DNA of 24,000 nt from Limnobaculum parvum (GTDB lineage: Bacteria > Pseudomonadota > Gammaproteobacteria > Enterobacterales > Enterobacteriaceae), in the NCBI RefSeq assembly GCF_003096015.2, contig NZ_CP029185.2, positions 2,009,488 through 2,033,487 on the forward strand, given 5' to 3'. Every line of letters begins with the position of its first letter. Position 1 is the stretch's first letter. The notes beneath the pieces are model-generated. The model saw only the letters and a list, made by a program, of their open reading frames with translations, was not told the DNA's origin and did not search any database. The translations under genes were made by a program, and so were the position numbers. Positions 1 through 7,166 of the stretch are shown here, in pieces.

Positions 1-57
1 ATGCGTGACATTAAAGATAAGTTATTACTTAATAAATGGGCGTTAATTTTTTAGACT

Positions 58-94
58 GGAAAAATAAAGAGGGCACTCATATTAGAGTGCCCTT
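58..94 (-). terminator. Rho-independent terminator downstream of rtcA
   Basis: On the minus strand, a 9-bp stem AGGGCACUC / GAGUGCCCU (70-94) with a 6-nt loop is followed by CUUUAUUUUU. It lies about 40 nt after the rtcA stop. Confidence 0.75.
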
Positions 95-135
95 ATCTGG
101 TGTTATCCATGCTGCCCGATAGATTTCTTTCGGTT

Positions 136-1161
136 TCACTGTCTTTGAATGTTTACTTCAATTCCCTGATGTACAGATTGAATATCAATACGGCAATTTA
201 GAAACTGACCGATAACGAAAGCATTGGTAGAAAGATGGTCAGTTATCACTGGTGTTGTAAAACTCCCTTCCCCTGCTATAGCCATTGGTAACAGTAATTG
301 GTCGGCTAAATACTCACCCACCGCCGCCGCCGACTTCAAATAGACTTGTGCTTCATCACAAGCTTCCTGTGCCACTTTCGCTGCCGCTTTTCCTTTAGTA
401 CCAATCGCACAGAATAGTTCGGTTAAATGCTCAAATTGCAGCTTTACTAACAGCGCATTACCGGCACAACGTGCTGATGAAACATCAACCGAGCACAACA
501 TTGATTCGTCAGCCTTTAACTGCTGTTTTACGATGTTCAATTCTCTGAAAGCAACGGATTCAGGTACGCCAGCGATCAGTGATTGTGCACCGATATCAAT
601 CAGTTTACCGCGCTGAGGCAAATGTAGCGCCTGCCATTGTTTAACCGGATCAATGGTCACTTCAACCTCACCGCCACCCGCAGGATAAAAGCCACAGCGA
701 TGTACCACTAAGGTTGCTTTTGCGCCCATTTTCGCCATTAATGGCAGCCAAACCTGCTGCAGAAAACTGGCTGATGGTGCCATAGGGTTATGTGTACCAC
801 CGATCAATTTCACTCGACTTTCACCATTGGCTGACCATAAGGCCGGTAACAGCGTTTGTAATACCAATGCACAACTGCCTGCACCACCTAAATCAAACTG
901 ATAGTCTCCTGACTTAATTTGACCGGGAATAAACGTCAACTCAGTTGAATTTAATGTTGCTCCACTCACCTGAGCAGCACAAACCTGTTGTGCTGCCAGA
1001 ATCGCGGTTAAATGTTGGCGCATAATACCGGGCTTACTTCGCCCGGCTCGAATATGGGTAAAACTCACGGCTTTACCGGTGATCATAGACAGCGACAACC
1101 CGCTGCGGAGAATTTGCCCCCCACCTTCACCTTTTGAACCATCAATTTCAATCCATTGCAC
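136..1161 (-). CDS. rtcA: RNA 3'-terminal phosphate cyclase RtcA
   Basis: The 341-aa ORF is colinear with E. coli RtcA, sharing GEGGGQILRS.LSLSMITG, IRAGR.KPG..RQHL, GFYPAGGG and AVGEYLADQL.LPMA. It has a GTG start with AGGAG 7 nt upstream and lies 41 nt downstream of rtcB. Confidence 0.95.
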   Translation of the reverse strand: MQWIEIDGSKGEGGGQILRSGLSLSMITGKAVSFTHIRAGRSKPGIMRQHLTAILAAQQVCAAQVSGATLNSTELTFIPGQIKSGDYQFDLGGAGSCALVLQTLLPALWSANGESRVKLIGGTHNPMAPSASFLQQVWLPLMAKMGAKATLVVHRCGFYPAGGGEVEVTIDPVKQWQALHLPQRGKLIDIGAQSLIAGVPESVAFRELNIVKQQLKADESMLCSVDVSSARCAGNALLVKLQFEHLTELFCAIGTKGKAAAKVAQEACDEAQVYLKSAAAVGEYLADQLLLPMAIAGEGSFTTPVITDHLSTNAFVIGQFLNCRIDIQSVHQGIEVNIQRQ

Positions 1162-1202: not shown

Positions 1203-2426
1203 TTACCCTTTAACACAAACTACCTGCTTTAAAGTATGAACAATTTCTACCAGTTCTGACTGTGCGGTCATCACTGCATCAATATCTTTATAGGCCATTG
1301 GTATCTCATCAATAACGTCTGAATCTTTACGGCATTCAACGCCAGCCGTCGCCTTGATTTGATCTTCTATCGAGAAACGACGTTTGGCTTCGGTACGGCT
1401 CATGGTTCGACCCGCTCCGTGGCTACAGGAGCAGAACGCGTCCGGGTTACCTTTTCCTCGCACAATAAAGGATCTTGCCCCCATGGAGCCTGGAATAATC
1501 CCTAATTCACCCGCCTGAGCGCTCACTGCACCTTTACGCGTTACCAAGACCTCTTGACCAAAATGCTGCTCTTTCTGTACATAGTTATGGTGACAGTTCA
1601 CCGCTTGCATCTCTAAAGTAAAGGGCTTGGTGATAACACTACGTACTGCGGCAATCACATTATTCATCATGGTTTCACGGTTTAATCGGGCATAACGTTG
1701 CGCCCAATCAACGGCAAAAACGTAATCGTTATAATGTTCGCTCCCTTCAACCAGATACGCTAAATCTTGATGTGGTAGGTTAATGAAGTGTCGTTGCATA
1801 TCCTTTTTAGCCAGTTCAATGAACAGGCTTCCGATAGCATTACCGATACCTCGTGAACCGGAGTGCAACATAAACCACACTGCCTGGTTCTCATCCAGAC
1901 AAACTTCAATAAAGTGGTTACCGGTTCCCAAGGTTCCTAAATGAACACGGTTATTGGTATTTTTTAACTTCGGATATTTATCAATAATCTGCTTAAAGTC
2001 AGGATCTAACTGTAACCATGCGCGGTTTACTACTTCAGGCACATCATTCCAGGCACCTTTATCTCGTTTGGATCGATTAACGTCTCGTCCATGTGGAACC
2101 GCTCGTTCTATGGCGTCACGCACGGCAGATAAGTTATCCGGCAAATCGCTGGCGTGCAGAGAGGTTCTTACCGCAATCATGCCACAACCAATATCCACGC
2201 CCACTGCGGCCGGAATAATCGCCCCCACAGTAGGAATAACGGATCCAATGGTTGATCCTTTACCTAAATGCACATCCGGCATCACCGCAATATGTTTAAA
2301 GATAAACGGCATTTTGGCCGTGTTCTCTAACTGGCGTTTAGCCTCGTCTTCAACCGGCACCCCCTGAGTCCACATTTTCACCGGGCGGCCATTCTCAACG
2401 TTCATTACCTGAATTGAAGGTTTCAT
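1203..2426 (-). CDS. rtcB: RNA-splicing ligase RtcB (3'-phosphate/5'-OH RNA ligase)
   Basis: The 407-aa ORF is near-colinear with E. coli RtcB, sharing MPFIFKHIAVMPDVHLGKGSTIGSVIPT, GTGNHFIE, HSGSRG, NCHHNYV, CSCSHGAGR and the C-terminal QVVCVKG. An RBS (AAAGGA) lies upstream. Confidence 0.97.
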   Translation of the reverse strand: MKPSIQVMNVENGRPVKMWTQGVPVEDEAKRQLENTAKMPFIFKHIAVMPDVHLGKGSTIGSVIPTVGAIIPAAVGVDIGCGMIAVRTSLHASDLPDNLSAVRDAIERAVPHGRDVNRSKRDKGAWNDVPEVVNRAWLQLDPDFKQIIDKYPKLKNTNNRVHLGTLGTGNHFIEVCLDENQAVWFMLHSGSRGIGNAIGSLFIELAKKDMQRHFINLPHQDLAYLVEGSEHYNDYVFAVDWAQRYARLNRETMMNNVIAAVRSVITKPFTLEMQAVNCHHNYVQKEQHFGQEVLVTRKGAVSAQAGELGIIPGSMGARSFIVRGKGNPDAFCSCSHGAGRTMSRTEAKRRFSIEDQIKATAGVECRKDSDVIDEIPMAYKDIDAVMTAQSELVEIVHTLKQVVCVKG

Positions 2427-2496
2427 TATTTATCCTTTACTCTTTTCCATTTCTTCGTTTGTCTTATCATTTCAACAAACGGTATTCATTGAGGTC

Positions 2497-2622
2497 GGGC
2501 AACAAGTTTTAGTGAAACATTCACAATGCTCTATCCAACTGAGCTACGGAACCTGGTTAGATTCCGGCGGGAGTCGAACCCGCGACCTTTGCACTTGGAT
2601 GTAGTTCCACCGGCATTTGCCC
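2497..2622 (-). ncRNA. Y-RNA-like module 4 (YrlA-type, permuted tRNA mimic)
   Basis: On the minus-strand RNA the closing helix is GGGCAA/UUGCCC and the 5' motif is AAUGCCGGUGGAACUACAU, in which GUGGAAC pairs with the 3' GUUUCAC. The T-arm is GCGGG-UUCGACU-CCCGC. The acceptor helix CGGAAUC/GGUUCCG is closed by the loop UAACCA. UA plus the D-arm GCUC-AGUUGGAUA-GAGC follows. The ends are approximate. Confidence 0.75.
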
Positions 2623-2633
2623 TGTATTTAGCT

Positions 2634-2743
2634 GCGGTAACAAGTATTATGCGAAACACGTGCTCTACCACTTGAGCTATTACTGATGACTCAGTAACCC
2701 GGGCTCGAACCGGGAACAATGTAGTTTCGCCTGCATTTACCGC
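2634..2743 (-). ncRNA. Y-RNA-like module 3 (YrlA-type, permuted tRNA mimic)
   Basis: The closing helix is GCGGUAA/UUACCGC and the 5' motif is AAUGCAGGCGAAACUACAU, in which GCGAAAC pairs with GUUUCGC. The T-arm is CCCGG-UUCGAGC-CCGGG. The acceptor helix UUACUGA/UCAGUAA is closed by GUCA. UA plus the D-arm GCUC-AAGUGGUA-GAGC follows. The module is separated from module 4 by only about 11 nt. Confidence 0.75.
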
Positions 2744-2755
2744 TTATTCATAAAG

Positions 2756-2855
2756 CAAACCGATAACAACCAACGATGCTGAGATTTCGCCTTACCGAGG
2801 CCGGATTTGAACCGGCTAAGCTATGTAATCCCTGCGGGCATTGGTTACCCGTTTG
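2756..2855 (-). ncRNA. Y-RNA-like module 2 (reduced/degenerate, YrlB-like?)
   Basis: The closing helix is CAAACGGGUAAC/GUUAUCGGUUUG (12 positions, 1 mismatch). It carries the family motif AAUGCCCGCAGGGAUUACAU, in which GGGAUU pairs with AAUCUC. A T-arm-like hairpin GCCGG-UUCAAAU-CCGGC is present, but I found no recognisable acceptor helix or D-arm. Confidence 0.45.
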
Positions 2856-2914
2856 CGTTGTTCTGCAATGGTGCTAACTATTATTTTTACGATTAATCTA
2901 ACAATCTAACTCTG

Positions 2915-3080
2915 GCCCTGAAAAAGCGGAGGACAACAGTGATGAAACGTATTGGATGCAAGCATCCGGTGCTCTGCCTCTGAGCTACGGTTCCATTGTG
3001 GCGGAACCGACGGGATTCGAACCCGTGACCTCCTCATTCGTAGTGATGTAGTTCCATCGGCATTCCTCCTTTATCAGGCG
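2915..3080 (-). ncRNA. Y-RNA-like module 1 (YrlA-type, permuted tRNA mimic)
   Basis: The closing helix is GGAGGA/UCCUCC, extendable to GCCUGAUAAAGGAGGA / UCCUCCGCUUUUUCAGGGC. The 5' motif is AAUGCCGAUGGAACUACAU, in which GAUGGAAC pairs with GUUUCAUC. The variable-loop-like GGUC precedes the T-arm ACGGG-UUCGAAU-CCCGU. The acceptor CGGUUCC-G-CCA-CAAU-GGAACCG is followed by UA and the D-arm GCUC-AGAGGCA-GAGC. An extra hairpin GGAUGC-UU-GCAUCC is inserted. Confidence 0.75.
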
Positions 3081-3154
3081 AGGCATAACATTATGGTGAT
3101 CGGGAAAGTAAATTCCTTATCATTTAGTTCTAGCGGTTATGCCACGATGCTCAG

Positions 3155-4738
3155 TTATTGTGACAATGTCACTTTATCAATTTCACCTAACCAATGTTGA
3201 GATTGCATTTGTCCTTGGGAAAATGCGCTAATCAACTGAAATACGGTGTCAGAAAACCCACCAATATTCAGAATGTCATCCCGTTCCTTTGCCTGTGTGG
3301 TGGCATTGGGCTGGATATCCAGACAAACCAGTCTGGCCGACGGATTAAAACGCTTAAACATTTCCCACTGGCGCATGGTTTCTGTTGCGCCACTTCCCTT
3401 ACGATTTATACTTCCCCAAGACTCGTTATCCGAAACCAACAGTACCAAATCAGCACGAATGCCTTTAGCATTTAACCATTTCAGCGGTGCGCTACAATCT
3501 GTTCCACCACCGCAGGCCGCAGCCAACTTGGCGGCATTGGTCAGTACCGTATCTCTTGGATTCAATGTTACCCGGTTGCTCTCTACCACTTGATACTCAA
3601 AGGGTAAAATTACCGTATCTCGCTGCTTACGCAGATAAGTGGCAGCAATTAATGCCGCAATATCAACGCAGCGGGTTACGGTTGTTGCTCCAGGGCGAAA
3701 ACCGGTTGCCGGCGAATGCATAGAACCAGATACATCTGGACATACCACCATTTTCCCCACCACGGGTAATACATTTTCTAATGCAATTTCTAGCGCATCC
3801 TGTAATGCTTCGCGCACCATCAGCGGGATCGCTTTACTGGATGACTGATATGCCGTCATTAGCTGATATGGGAACACGTTTGCCTGCATGATGTTCTTTC
3901 TATCACTCAACTTGTCAGCAACCATTTTTGCCATGCCCGGCAATTCAAACACGCCGTGACGGGCAAAGGTATTCAGATTCATTCGCACCATTTGCCAGCT
4001 ACCCTGCTTTGCGATCTCCGCCCAGTCAGCCGTGGTTAAATTCAAGGACGTCAACATCTGAAACGGCACTGCCGGTAATCCACCCTCATCACAGCTACCT
4101 TGGCGTTTATATTGTTCAAACGCACGAGTAATGGGAGGTAATGCATTTTCATCATAAGGTTTCCCAATTAACCAAGCAAAGAAGGCTTCTCTCCAGCTTT
4201 CTTGAGGTTTCGGGTGCACCATTTTTACCACATCAGCTAACGATGGATTATTACCGACTGCTGCCGATAATAAAGCTCGCTCGCTAGCGTTATTTAACCA
4301 ATCCTGCACTAATTTTTTAGGACGAGTCCCTAAAGATTTACGTCCAACGGTGCCACTACGTAATATTTGCACAAAGTTACGCAACATTTTGCCGTTATCC
4401 ACCACCTGTGGAAACGCCATCGGTAAATACGCTTTTCCCTTAACTGAAAGCACCGCTAGCAGCAATGCCGGCATATCTTTCATGTAGCCGTATTGACGGC
4501 AGTACACCGCTATTTTTGCCAGCATTAACGGGTCAACTTGAGAACACAACGTCATCACTGTTTCTAACTGAGTTTCTGCCGAGGCGTAATAAGTACCGTT
4601 TAAGCACCCTGTCGCAGCGTACTGGGCCAGAGCATGTTCCGCACTAAACGGGTATGCCGTTCCACCTGCTTGGTTCAGGCTATTGGCTTTTGGTAACAGG
4701 CGACCCTTTAATGATTTAAATAGTTGAATATTCGCCAT
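3155..4738 (-). CDS. rsr: Ro60-related protein Rsr (TROVE domain + vWA domain)
   Basis: The ORF has N-terminal TROVE-like and C-terminal vWA architecture, with the MIDAS motif DVSGSM in VVCPDVSGSMHSP. It lies immediately upstream of Y-RNA-like genes and rtcBA, as in the Salmonella rsr-yrlBA-rtcBA operon. I moved the start from the track's 4801 to the ATG at 4738 (MANIQLF...), which lies 7 nt after AGGAGA. The ATG at 4744 is too close to that RBS. Confidence 0.88.
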   Translation of the reverse strand: MANIQLFKSLKGRLLPKANSLNQAGGTAYPFSAEHALAQYAATGCLNGTYYASAETQLETVMTLCSQVDPLMLAKIAVYCRQYGYMKDMPALLLAVLSVKGKAYLPMAFPQVVDNGKMLRNFVQILRSGTVGRKSLGTRPKKLVQDWLNNASERALLSAAVGNNPSLADVVKMVHPKPQESWREAFFAWLIGKPYDENALPPITRAFEQYKRQGSCDEGGLPAVPFQMLTSLNLTTADWAEIAKQGSWQMVRMNLNTFARHGVFELPGMAKMVADKLSDRKNIMQANVFPYQLMTAYQSSSKAIPLMVREALQDALEIALENVLPVVGKMVVCPDVSGSMHSPATGFRPGATTVTRCVDIAALIAATYLRKQRDTVILPFEYQVVESNRVTLNPRDTVLTNAAKLAAACGGGTDCSAPLKWLNAKGIRADLVLLVSDNESWGSINRKGSGATETMRQWEMFKRFNPSARLVCLDIQPNATTQAKERDDILNIGGFSDTVFQLISAFSQGQMQSQHWLGEIDKVTLSQ

Positions 4739-4858
4739 GCTCATTCTCCTTTGAGACAAATTTAATCTGGTGGACAAAACGCAACCTTCTGTTGTTATCA
4801 CTACCAGTTAATCTTTGATGGTGTGTTCTAACGTTGCTGCCCTTCATGCCAGATATAT

Positions 4859-4875
4859 AGCGATAAGCGTGCCAA
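4859..4875 (-). promoter_or_regulatory. Sigma54 (-24/-12) promoter of the rsr operon
   Basis: The minus strand reads TTGGCACGCTTATCGCT, compared with the consensus TGGCACG-N4-TTGCW. The GG (4873/4872) and GC (4861/4860) are exactly 12 nt apart. The predicted TSS is near 4848, about 110 nt upstream of the rsr start. rtcBA is known to be sigma54/RtcR-dependent in E. coli and Salmonella. Confidence 0.7.
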
Positions 4876-5013
4876 CTTTTAAAATCAACGGAAAAATAAA
4901 TTTAATCACATGAATTAAAAGAAAATTAAATTTATTTTTAATTTTGAGGGATACCTCAACGGAAAACCAGCTGGGGATATAACTATCTATAAGGATAAAT
5001 AATTATCTATTAA

Positions 5014-6532: not shown

Positions 6533-7166
6533 CCTCTCGAAAAGTATTGACGTTTATCACATAGTCTTCAGAATTAAAAAGGGCCCGACCCAGCACCAGA
6601 TGCCGCGCTCCGGCAATGTGAAGTTTCTTAGCAGCAGCAAGCGTAATGCCCCCATCAGCCCATATCTCCCTTGTCTTAAATAGTGAAGCGGCTCGTGTAA
6701 CTTTATCAATCAACAGTGGATTAAAACGCTGTCCCATACCGTCAGGCTCACTGGTCATAATCATTATGCTATCGACAAGTGTCGCAAGATAAGAATAAGG
6801 TTCCAGTGGTGTTGCCGGATTAAAGGCCAGCCCCGCTTTACTGCCAATACCGTTGATTAGTGCCAGAATTTCAGCGGGGTTCGCCAACGTTTCAACATGA
6901 ACAAATACCCAAGCTGGATTGAGTGGTTTCAACCACTCAATCCACGGAAATGGATCATTGACCATTAAATGAAACGATAAGGGATGATGCGTTACACCGG
7001 CAACCTGAGTCGCCGTTTTTACACCGAAAGTGATATTTCGGATAAAGCTAGTGTCTTCAATATCTAAATGTATCGAACCCACCGTCGCAGTATTCAACAC
7101 GTCGAGGGTTCTTCCTAATTCGAGCTGACTGGCAGAAGCCAATGAAGGATGAATAGTGGTTAACAT
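6516..7166 (-). CDS. sgcE: Ribulose-phosphate 3-epimerase family protein (SgcE-like)
   Basis: The 216-aa ORF has an Rpe-family pattern (PSL.SA....LG, HLDIED..F..N.TFG, and the C-terminal ADGGI). It sits between the IIA and DeoR genes, as in E. coli sgc. Confidence 0.8.
   Translation of the reverse strand: MLTTIHPSLASASQLELGRTLDVLNTATVGSIHLDIEDTSFIRNITFGVKTATQVAGVTHHPLSFHLMVNDPFPWIEWLKPLNPAWVFVHVETLANPAEILALINGIGSKAGLAFNPATPLEPYSYLATLVDSIMIMTSEPDGMGQRFNPLLIDKVTRAASLFKTREIWADGGITLAAAKKLHIAGARHLVLGRALFNSEDYVINVNTFREVGYER

Follow-up and report, generated by a model that had tools for sequence, protein, structure and literature searches.

The rsr-rtcB spacer of Limnobaculum parvum probably carries a tandem array of four Y RNA genes

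In bacteria, the Ro60 ring has Y RNAs as its RNA partners, and several roles have been proposed for their tRNA-like tip. Rsr is known to bind YrlA and YrlB, which are encoded 3' of rsr in an rsr-yrlBA-rtcBA operon, and YrlA carries modifications made by TruB and DusA. In the 24,000-nt stretch of Limnobaculum parvum DNA analyzed here (the window), an rsr gene is separated from rtcB by 728 nt (3154..2427, minus strand), exactly as a preliminary description of this DNA had stated. What does this spacer encode? The same description had proposed four consecutive Y-RNA-like modules, three of them circularly permuted tRNA mimics. From the sequence, structure, conservation, covariation and gene context of the locus, we conclude with a probability of about 85% that four Y RNA genes of the bacterial Ro60 (Rsr) system stand in tandem in this spacer; as to what the element is, there is hardly any doubt. 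This is an already known kind of element in a known type of operon, and it adds no new principle. It is worth following for the typical size of such arrays, for the classes of tip that they carry, for a class with an encoded CCA, and for the cheap experiments that it offers on the purpose of the tip.

On the minus strand, the spacer and its surroundings comprise promoter, rsr, Y RNAs, rtcB, rtcA and terminator, most of the components of a Salmonella-type rsr-yrl-rtcBA RNA repair operon. The sigma-54-type -24/-12 promoter 5' of rsr, TGGCACGCTTATCGC (4874..4860), has one mismatch to TGGCAC-N5-TTGC. It is kept 5' of rsr in loci L001-L004 and in 23 further loci, and the rsr operon of Salmonella is known to be sigma-54/RtcR dependent. 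The rsr gene (4738..3155) has its ATG at 4738, with AGGAG 8 nt upstream, and its TAA stop at 3157..3155; the 527-aa product is a Ro60 ortholog with vWA_Ro60 (Pfam, E 3e-16) and TROVE domains. On the other side of the spacer lie the genes for the RNA ligase RtcB (2426..1203, ATG at 2426; Pfam RtcB, E 8.5e-131) and the RNA 3'-phosphate cyclase RtcA (1161..136; Pfam RTC, E 1e-75). They are followed by an intrinsic terminator, AGGGCACUC-loop-GAGUGCCCU and then CUUUAUUUUU (93..60), which stands at the operon end and was the sole non-coding terminator-like site found by the terminator scan on the minus strand from rsr to the end of the window. Within the spacer itself, the scan of the minus strand found no promoter-like or terminator-like site. 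Unlike the Salmonella-type operon, which has a divergent rtcR activator gene, neither the 24-kb window nor the orthologous L001 locus (11.6 kb, 5 kb on either side of rsr) contains rtcR.

The four modules are recognized by a common 5' motif. AATGC-N(9-10)-TACAT has exactly four matches in the 24-kb window (3064..3046, 2842..2823, 2737..2719 and 2617..2599), all on the minus strand and all in the rsr-rtcB spacer, where they read as first quoted; 0.28 matches are expected, and four were reached in none of 100 shuffles. Each motif opens a unit that is closed by its own terminal helix and contains an inner helix, and a check of the sequence confirmed that both helices pair as described in all four units. 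From helix to helix, the units extend over 3069..2928, 2856..2755, 2743..2634 and 2622..2497. Hence the array starts, in forward coordinates, at 2497 as originally given, while its other limit is 3069 and the earlier value of 3080 was 11 nt too far. The linkers between units 2 and 3 and between units 3 and 4 are AU-rich and 11 nt long, the latter in agreement with the earlier estimate, and units 1 and 2 are separated by 71 nt. All four units sit 86-658 nt 3' of the rsr stop on the same strand, well inside the distance of about 4 kb from a Ro60/Rsr ortholog that Chen et al. 2014 took as their limit. Minimum free energy (MFE) folding gives the proposed architecture for units 1 and 2 and retains most of it for units 3 and 4; the single-sequence fold z-scores of the four units range from -2.0 to -3.8.

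Units 1, 3 and 4 show the YrlA order, that is, a T-arm, a closed acceptor stem-loop and a D-arm, with a conserved T-loop UUCRA, a D-loop GG and a UA linker ahead of the D-stem. In unit 1 (3069..2928), the terminal helix GGAGGA/UCCUCC and the inner helix GAUGGAAC/GUUUCAUC enclose the T-arm (3026..3010), the acceptor hairpin (3009..2988), the D-arm (2985..2971) and an extra hairpin (2967..2954); the MFE fold is the proposed structure. Unit 3 (2743..2634) has the helices GCGGUAA/UUACCGC and GCGAAAC/GUUUCGC, with its T-arm at 2714..2698, acceptor hairpin at 2697..2680 and D-arm at 2677..2662. Unit 4 (2622..2497) has the helices GGGCAA/UUGCCC and GUGGAAC/GUUUCAC, with its T-arm at 2583..2567, acceptor hairpin at 2566..2547 and D-arm at 2544..2528. 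The T- and D-arms announced for these three units are therefore present; only the wording of the T-loop as UUCGANU has to be amended, since that of unit 3 is UUCGAGC.

This assignment was compared with the Rfam YrlA family (RF02553, gathering score 69 bits). Unit 4 scored 86.2 bits (E 1e-20), above the gathering score, whereas unit 3 (62.7 bits, E 9e-14) and unit 1 (46.3 bits, E 4.5e-9) were significant but below it, and unit 2 had no Rfam match. At the gathering threshold unit 4 alone is thus detected, and units 1 and 3 need the E-value mode, so that standard annotation sees one of the four modules at this locus. The low score of unit 1 is partly due to its extra 14-nt hairpin, which makes Rfam misalign the 3' strand; a covariance model built on a corrected alignment (R1, described below) gives this unit 108 bits and unit 3 100 bits. 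Weak Rfam matches to tmRNA, permuted tmRNA, mascRNA and plastid UTR families concern the T-arm/acceptor part only and were set aside. The RF02553 matches of units 1, 3 and 4, which adjoin a TROVE/vWA Ro60 ortholog upstream of rtcB-rtcA, bear out the YrlA-type architecture first recognized from the sequence. The reading of these three units as YrlA-type, circularly permuted tRNA mimics is supported and matches published work.

Unit 2 (2856..2755) is built differently. Its closing stem has 12 pairs with one mismatch and is followed by the AAUGC motif and the inner helix GGGAUU/AAUCUC. The tip consists of a T-arm, GCCGG-UUCAAAU-CCGGC (2816..2800), and a small hairpin, with neither acceptor nor D-arm. 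The count of three tRNA mimics out of four thus holds, with the addition that unit 2 also carries a T-arm; since this is its only tRNA part, the unit is not YrlA-type, and we describe it as YrlB-like. Model R1 gives it 17.7 bits (E 0.0036) in the window and 27-32 bits in three orthologs. The same architecture recurs in Pseudomonas, in Neisseria and in a Ponticaulis MAG (L066).

Orthologous loci were used in order to evaluate the proposed helices. The Rsr protein is 92-93% identical to the Limnobaculum proteins (527 aa) and 80% identical to that of Pragia fontium, and four units in the same order are found in L. allomyrinae, L. eriocheiris and P. fontium. Identity to the Pragia units is 81-87% (87% for unit 1 and 81% for unit 2), compared with 18% for the 67-nt spacer between units 1 and 2, which is mostly deleted, and 55% for the stretch from unit 4 to rtcB. 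Over the 117 proposed pairs, pairing reaches 98.9% in the four-species alignment and falls to 32-49% in controls with one strand slid. Double-sided changes amount to six, against 0-1 in the slid controls. They affect the terminal helix and T-stem of unit 1 (both A-U to G-C in Pragia), the acceptor stem of unit 3 (two changes, in Pragia) and the terminal and inner helices of unit 4. No compensatory change was seen in unit 2 among these four close orthologs, which show a single G-U to G-C change there; the fold of this unit is therefore supported by its conservation and by what more distant relatives show. The covariation first noticed among the paralogous units is real, and it extends to the orthologs.

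The orthologs also bear on coding capacity. Short ORFs of 43-82 aa do overlap the spacer region, but the units of the Pragia ortholog contain single-base indels, which argue against coding. A coding reading of these ORFs was rejected on the basis of such indels together with substitutions that preserve the structure, in keeping with the original view that the spacer has no credible ORF. A Megablast search of the spacer against complete E. coli genomes returned no match.

How usual is an array of four? To build R1, we combined one module of an Enterobacteriaceae bacterium with units 1, 3 and 4 as they occur in the four species. A search with this model at E <= 0.01 covered the window and 79 further rsr loci, each from a different species (80 loci), and gave 296 matches, all on the rsr strand and adjoining rsr. 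Four matches were obtained in 23 loci, five in 25, six in 3 and eight in 1, so that 52 of the 80 loci have at least four modules. These counts are lower bounds, as R1 missed a short module at about 6588-6655 of locus L004. Full-length YrlA-type modules number three in 30 loci and four in one locus. A model-free count of AATGC-N8-11-TACA led to a similar picture, 78 of 79 loci having matches, commonly 3-5 motifs and up to 7. The suggestion that four modules in a row would be at the upper end of what has been described is thus contradicted: arrays of 4-5 modules on one Rsr-binding chassis with varied tips are usual in the sampled Proteobacterial rsr loci, whose Rsr proteins are relatives of the one studied here. 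Loci with several YrlA-like sequences were already present among the 355 candidates that Chen et al. 2014 reported in 276 genomes (254 bacteria and 22 phages).

The enlarged set also strengthens the structural assignment. Among the best 150 R1 matches (143 distinct modules, 69 loci), 98.6% of cells pair, and in the 143 distinct modules double changes occur in 26 of 29 pairs, against 36-59% pairing and 9-20 pairs with double changes in slid controls; this alignment was fitted to R1, which favours the structure. For the class with a T-arm only, RNAalifold on a MAFFT alignment of 14 short modules recovers the terminal helix, with double changes in 6 of 7 pairs, and the T-stem. The inner helix of this class was not recovered by this procedure because of indels, and it is supported by single-sequence folds alone. 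Two other candidates were rejected. An R1 match on the plus strand (57..112, 17.9 bits) coincides with the rtcA terminator hairpin read on its other strand, and we put it down to chance. Just 3' of the rsr stop, a conserved hairpin (3145..3080, minus strand; GUGGCAUAAC ... GUUAUGCC(U/A)C) encloses an inner GGAA-UUUAYY-UUCC hairpin and is 67% identical to its Pragia counterpart. RNAalifold gives it 19 pairs with no compensatory change; as it has neither the chassis motif, nor an R1 match with filters off, nor covariation, it was not retained as a fifth Y RNA.

What the units share is a chassis. All four have a 6-7-bp terminal helix, a single-stranded AAUGC and a 6-8-bp inner helix ending in ...AYUACAU, answered on the 3' side by GUUUC..., a loop and UUGU leading into the terminal helix. 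The family consensus of the stem motif is GGCGAAUG, and units of the window read GGCAAAUG, GAGGAAUG and GGUAAAUG; AAUG is invariant and the remaining positions vary with compensating partners. A GNCGAAN0-1G motif was proposed for Rsr recognition (Chen et al. 2014), and judging from its sequence the chassis, with consensus GGCGAAUG, appears to correspond to the published Rsr-binding stem that carries this motif. The tip carried by this chassis can be exchanged. Among the modules it is either a full permuted tRNA-like domain (as in units 1, 3 and 4: variable region, T-arm, closed acceptor hairpin and D-arm), or a T-arm with a small hairpin, or a short loop only. D-arm stems of the GUUC/GAAC type occur in Pseudomonas.

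The tip of unit 1 deserves separate consideration. Bacterial RNase P substrates are determined by G+1, U-1 and a 3' NCCA. The acceptor hairpin of unit 1 (3009..2988), CGGUUCC-G-CCA-CAAU-GGAACCG, consists of a 7-nt strand, the discriminator G, CCA (3001..2999), a 4-nt linker and the complementary 7-nt strand. It looks like an RNase P substrate, which we take as a lead and not as a result. An N-CCA at exactly the same offset is found in 32 of the best 150 modules, representing 20 distinct hairpins and 28 of the 69 loci with a high-scoring YrlA-type module (about 40%). These modules come from Enterobacterales, Neisseria, Hyphomicrobiales, Rhodobacterales and other Alphaproteobacteria. Among the 20 distinct hairpins, the 5' strand starts with G in 18, the preceding base is U in 15 and the linker is 4-5 nt long in 19.

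RNase P cleavage and a CCA end were shown by Chen et al. for YrlA of M. smegmatis only, and were attributed to its being the sole YrlA with a 7-bp acceptor stem. Wang et al. considered that most YrlA acceptor stems should be poor RNase P substrates. Here, acceptor stems of at least 7 bp are present in 81 of 150 modules. No mention of an encoded CCA was found in these two primary papers. One might tentatively propose, at somewhat less than even odds, that unit 1 represents a widespread and apparently undescribed YrlA subclass with an encoded acceptor end, cut by RNase P into a two-piece Y RNA. Its hairpin would comprise a 7-nt 3' strand, a discriminator, CCA, a 4-5-nt linker, in most cases with a final U, and a 7-nt 5' strand that mostly begins with G. 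RNase P would cut unit 1 between U2995 and G2994 and the 3' side would be trimmed back to CCA, giving one half ending in ...GGUUCCGCCA and another beginning with GGAACCG (2994). Rsr would then hold a Y RNA in two pieces whose CCA end is free and tRNA-like, a form so far shown for M. smegmatis YrlA alone and treated in the literature as an exception. If true, each array would contain, next to tips that stay closed (units 3 and 4), one that is opened and possibly chargeable (unit 1), and these mixed tips would give Rsr different partners. The N-CCA layout would agree as well with YrlA having arisen from two tRNA genes in tandem, its acceptor stem being made of real acceptor strands and not of spacer.

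Could the spacer have another function altogether? Linkers of only 11 nt separate units 2/3 and 3/4 inside one transcription unit, and an rtcB homolog lies 3' of the array in 63 of 79 loci, as would be anticipated if the spacer were a single long structured cis-acting leader that stabilises or regulates the rtcB part of the operon mRNA, for instance a processing or translation-control element. The Neisseria loci speak against such a leader: their order is promoter (a sigma-54 element 5' of the array), array and rsr, with neither rtcB nor rtcA within 5 kb, indicating that the modules travel with rsr and not with rtcB. In addition, the number and order of modules differ among loci, yet every module retains its own closing helix, and in Salmonella and M. 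smegmatis the homologous RNAs accumulate as separate molecules bound to Rsr. We hold a cis-acting leader to be very improbable. Even less credit, close to none, can be given to a reading of the tRNA-like units as permuted or degenerate tRNA genes whose products become decoding tRNAs, as happens with permuted tRNA genes in some algae. The canonical T- and D-arms, the 7-bp acceptor stems, the encoded NCCA of unit 1 and a weak Rfam match of this unit to permuted tmRNA (21 bits, E 0.038) are what would recommend it. However, where a canonical tRNA gene has its anticodon arm, the array units have the conserved Rsr-binding stem with its AAUGC loop, and the same chassis is found on modules that have no tRNA part. 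ARAGORN calls no tRNA gene in the window, as had been predicted. Moreover, no machinery for reordering permuted tRNAs is known in bacteria, and the splicing endonuclease that this would involve has not been reported there.

A further alternative keeps the Y RNA identity and concerns the purpose of the tips, which would serve mainly as decoys or competitive inhibitors of tRNA-targeting nucleases or toxins under the stress by which the operon is induced, varied tips facing varied enemies. Hughes et al. 2020 proposed that YrlA, which is not cut by an SOS-induced anticodon nuclease, may inhibit that nuclease competitively, and the presence of several structurally distinct tips per locus goes in the same direction. 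Modules without any tRNA part are nevertheless retained in the same arrays, and the co-purification of Rsr and YrlA with PNPase fits a tether; we consider the decoy explanation unlikely. Published data support tethering to PNPase and gating of the Rsr cavity, and this function is the most likely of the published options for the Y RNAs of the array.

By analogy with its homologs, the Y RNA array would be expressed from the sigma-54 promoter (4874..4860) within a single rsr-yrl(x4)-rtcB-rtcA transcript that stops at the terminator (93..60). The spacer has no internal promoter or terminator, its linkers of 11 nt are AU-rich, and the Y RNAs of M. smegmatis are reported to be cut from one precursor; we infer from these observations that the units could be co-transcribed and released endonucleolytically by cuts in the AU-rich linkers, and the processing from the operon transcript that had been suggested at the outset is plausible. 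Each released RNA would bind one Rsr ring via its stem. The tRNA-like tip would then offer a stable surface shaped like a tRNA, through which partner proteins (PNPase in Salmonella and Deinococcus) are tethered to Rsr and/or the Rsr cavity is gated, presumably in an RNA-damage response in which RtcB and RtcA act too.

The closest known counterpart of units 1, 3 and 4 is YrlA of S. Typhimurium, whose tRNA-like domain has been solved (PDB 6CU1). As in this RNA, they are encoded between rsr and rtcB in a sigma-54 operon, their 5' and 3' ends form a stem, the T-arm is 5' of the D-arm with a closed acceptor hairpin between them, and the T-loop, the D-loop GG and the UA linker are conserved. In contrast to the single copy of S. 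Typhimurium, three YrlA-type copies are present here, with acceptor stems of 7-8 bp where the Salmonella stem is reported to be too short for RNase P, and unit 1 has in addition its hairpin after the D-arm and its encoded NCCA. Unit 1 is rather reminiscent of M. smegmatis YrlA, which is cut by RNase P and receives CCA: both have a 7-bp acceptor stem, to which unit 1 adds G+1, U-1 and a discriminator followed by CCA. In M. smegmatis, CA is added after cleavage, whereas in unit 1 the CCA is encoded and cleavage is only predicted. Unit 2, set beside YrlB of S. Typhimurium and M. smegmatis by description only, is likewise a Y RNA shorter than its YrlA-type neighbours, whose stem it shares, and like the M. 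smegmatis RNA it has a possible T-arm and no full tRNA-like domain. Unlike YrlB, it does not directly follow rsr but lies between YrlA-type units.

In D. radiodurans, Yrn1 and Yrn2, which belong to the Ro60-Y RNA-PNPase machine (RYPER), are also several Y RNAs adjoining rsr, each with a stem and an effector-binding tip, and Yrn1 has a T-arm-like stem-loop. They differ from the array units in arm order and in the sequence of the binding site, and they lie upstream of rsr, outside any rtcBA operon. Finally, the permuted tRNA genes of red algae and of one archaeon, and two-piece tmRNA, have the same succession of T-arm, acceptor 3' strand, (NCCA), linker, acceptor 5' strand and D-arm; these are processed into a working tRNA or tmRNA, whereas the array units carry a protein-binding stem at the position of the anticodon.

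The acceptor hairpin of unit 1, a YrlA-type module in the rsr-rtcB spacer, lies on the minus strand at 3009..2988. As read from the sequence, it consists of an encoded 7-nt strand followed by G, CCA (3001..2999), CAAU and the second 7-nt strand. Of the 69 loci that supplied the 150 best (143 distinct) matches to R1, our covariance model for these modules, 28 show this N-CCA layout and together contribute 20 distinct hairpins of this kind, which carry G+1 and, in most cases, U-1. Modules with the same layout include, among others, those at 4620-4754 in the Neisseria locus L012, at 6992-7126 and 7312-7447 in L030, and at 7020-7155 and 7997-8134 in L038. On the basis of its sequence, the N-CCA acceptor hairpin looks like an RNase P/CCA substrate.

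Unit 1 also contains an invariant extra hairpin, GGAUGCUUGCAUCC (2967..2954), which follows the D-arm and precedes the 3' strand of the inner helix. This hairpin is absent from units 3 and 4, and its presence in unit 1 explains why this unit is misaligned by Rfam. Another conserved hairpin (3145..3080) is located directly downstream of the rsr stop codon; it is formed by a 10-bp stem, GUGGCAUAAC...GUUAUGCC(U/A)C, that encloses an inner GGAA-loop-UUCC hairpin. Neither the chassis motif of the Y-RNA modules nor covariation was detected in it.

The Y-RNA model also matched positions 57..112 of the plus strand with 17.9 bits. This match was rejected as fortuitous, as it corresponds to the terminator hairpin of rtcA (93..60, minus strand) read on the opposite strand. 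Since it scores as high as unit 2, weak matches to the model have to be judged in context.

Far longer arrays were observed in a Pseudomonadota MAG (L064 5769-7601, 8 model matches) and in Acinetobacter sp. CFCC 10889 (L079 6710-7467, 6 model matches and 7 motifs). In Enterobacteriaceae bacterium B14 (L004), a short hairpin-type module located directly 3' of rsr (6588-6655) was missed by the model, and the module at 6676-6786 has a degenerate tRNA-like part and a terminal helix, GCGGUAA/UUACCGC, identical to that of unit 3. In the Neisseria loci (L012, L015-L019, L021, L022 and L074, at about 4110-4920), five modules intervene between a sigma-54-type promoter and the rsr gene downstream of it, and neither rtcB nor rtcA was found within 5 kb. 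This order places the array upstream of rsr, not downstream.

In the window, a sigma-54-type promoter is likewise present upstream of rsr (4874..4860). No gene for RtcR or another sigma-54 activator was found in the 24-kb window, nor in the Limnobaculum allomyrinae locus (L001 1-11581), which extends 5 kb beyond rsr in both directions. The arrangement in Salmonella and E. coli is different, as rtcR is present there in divergent orientation.
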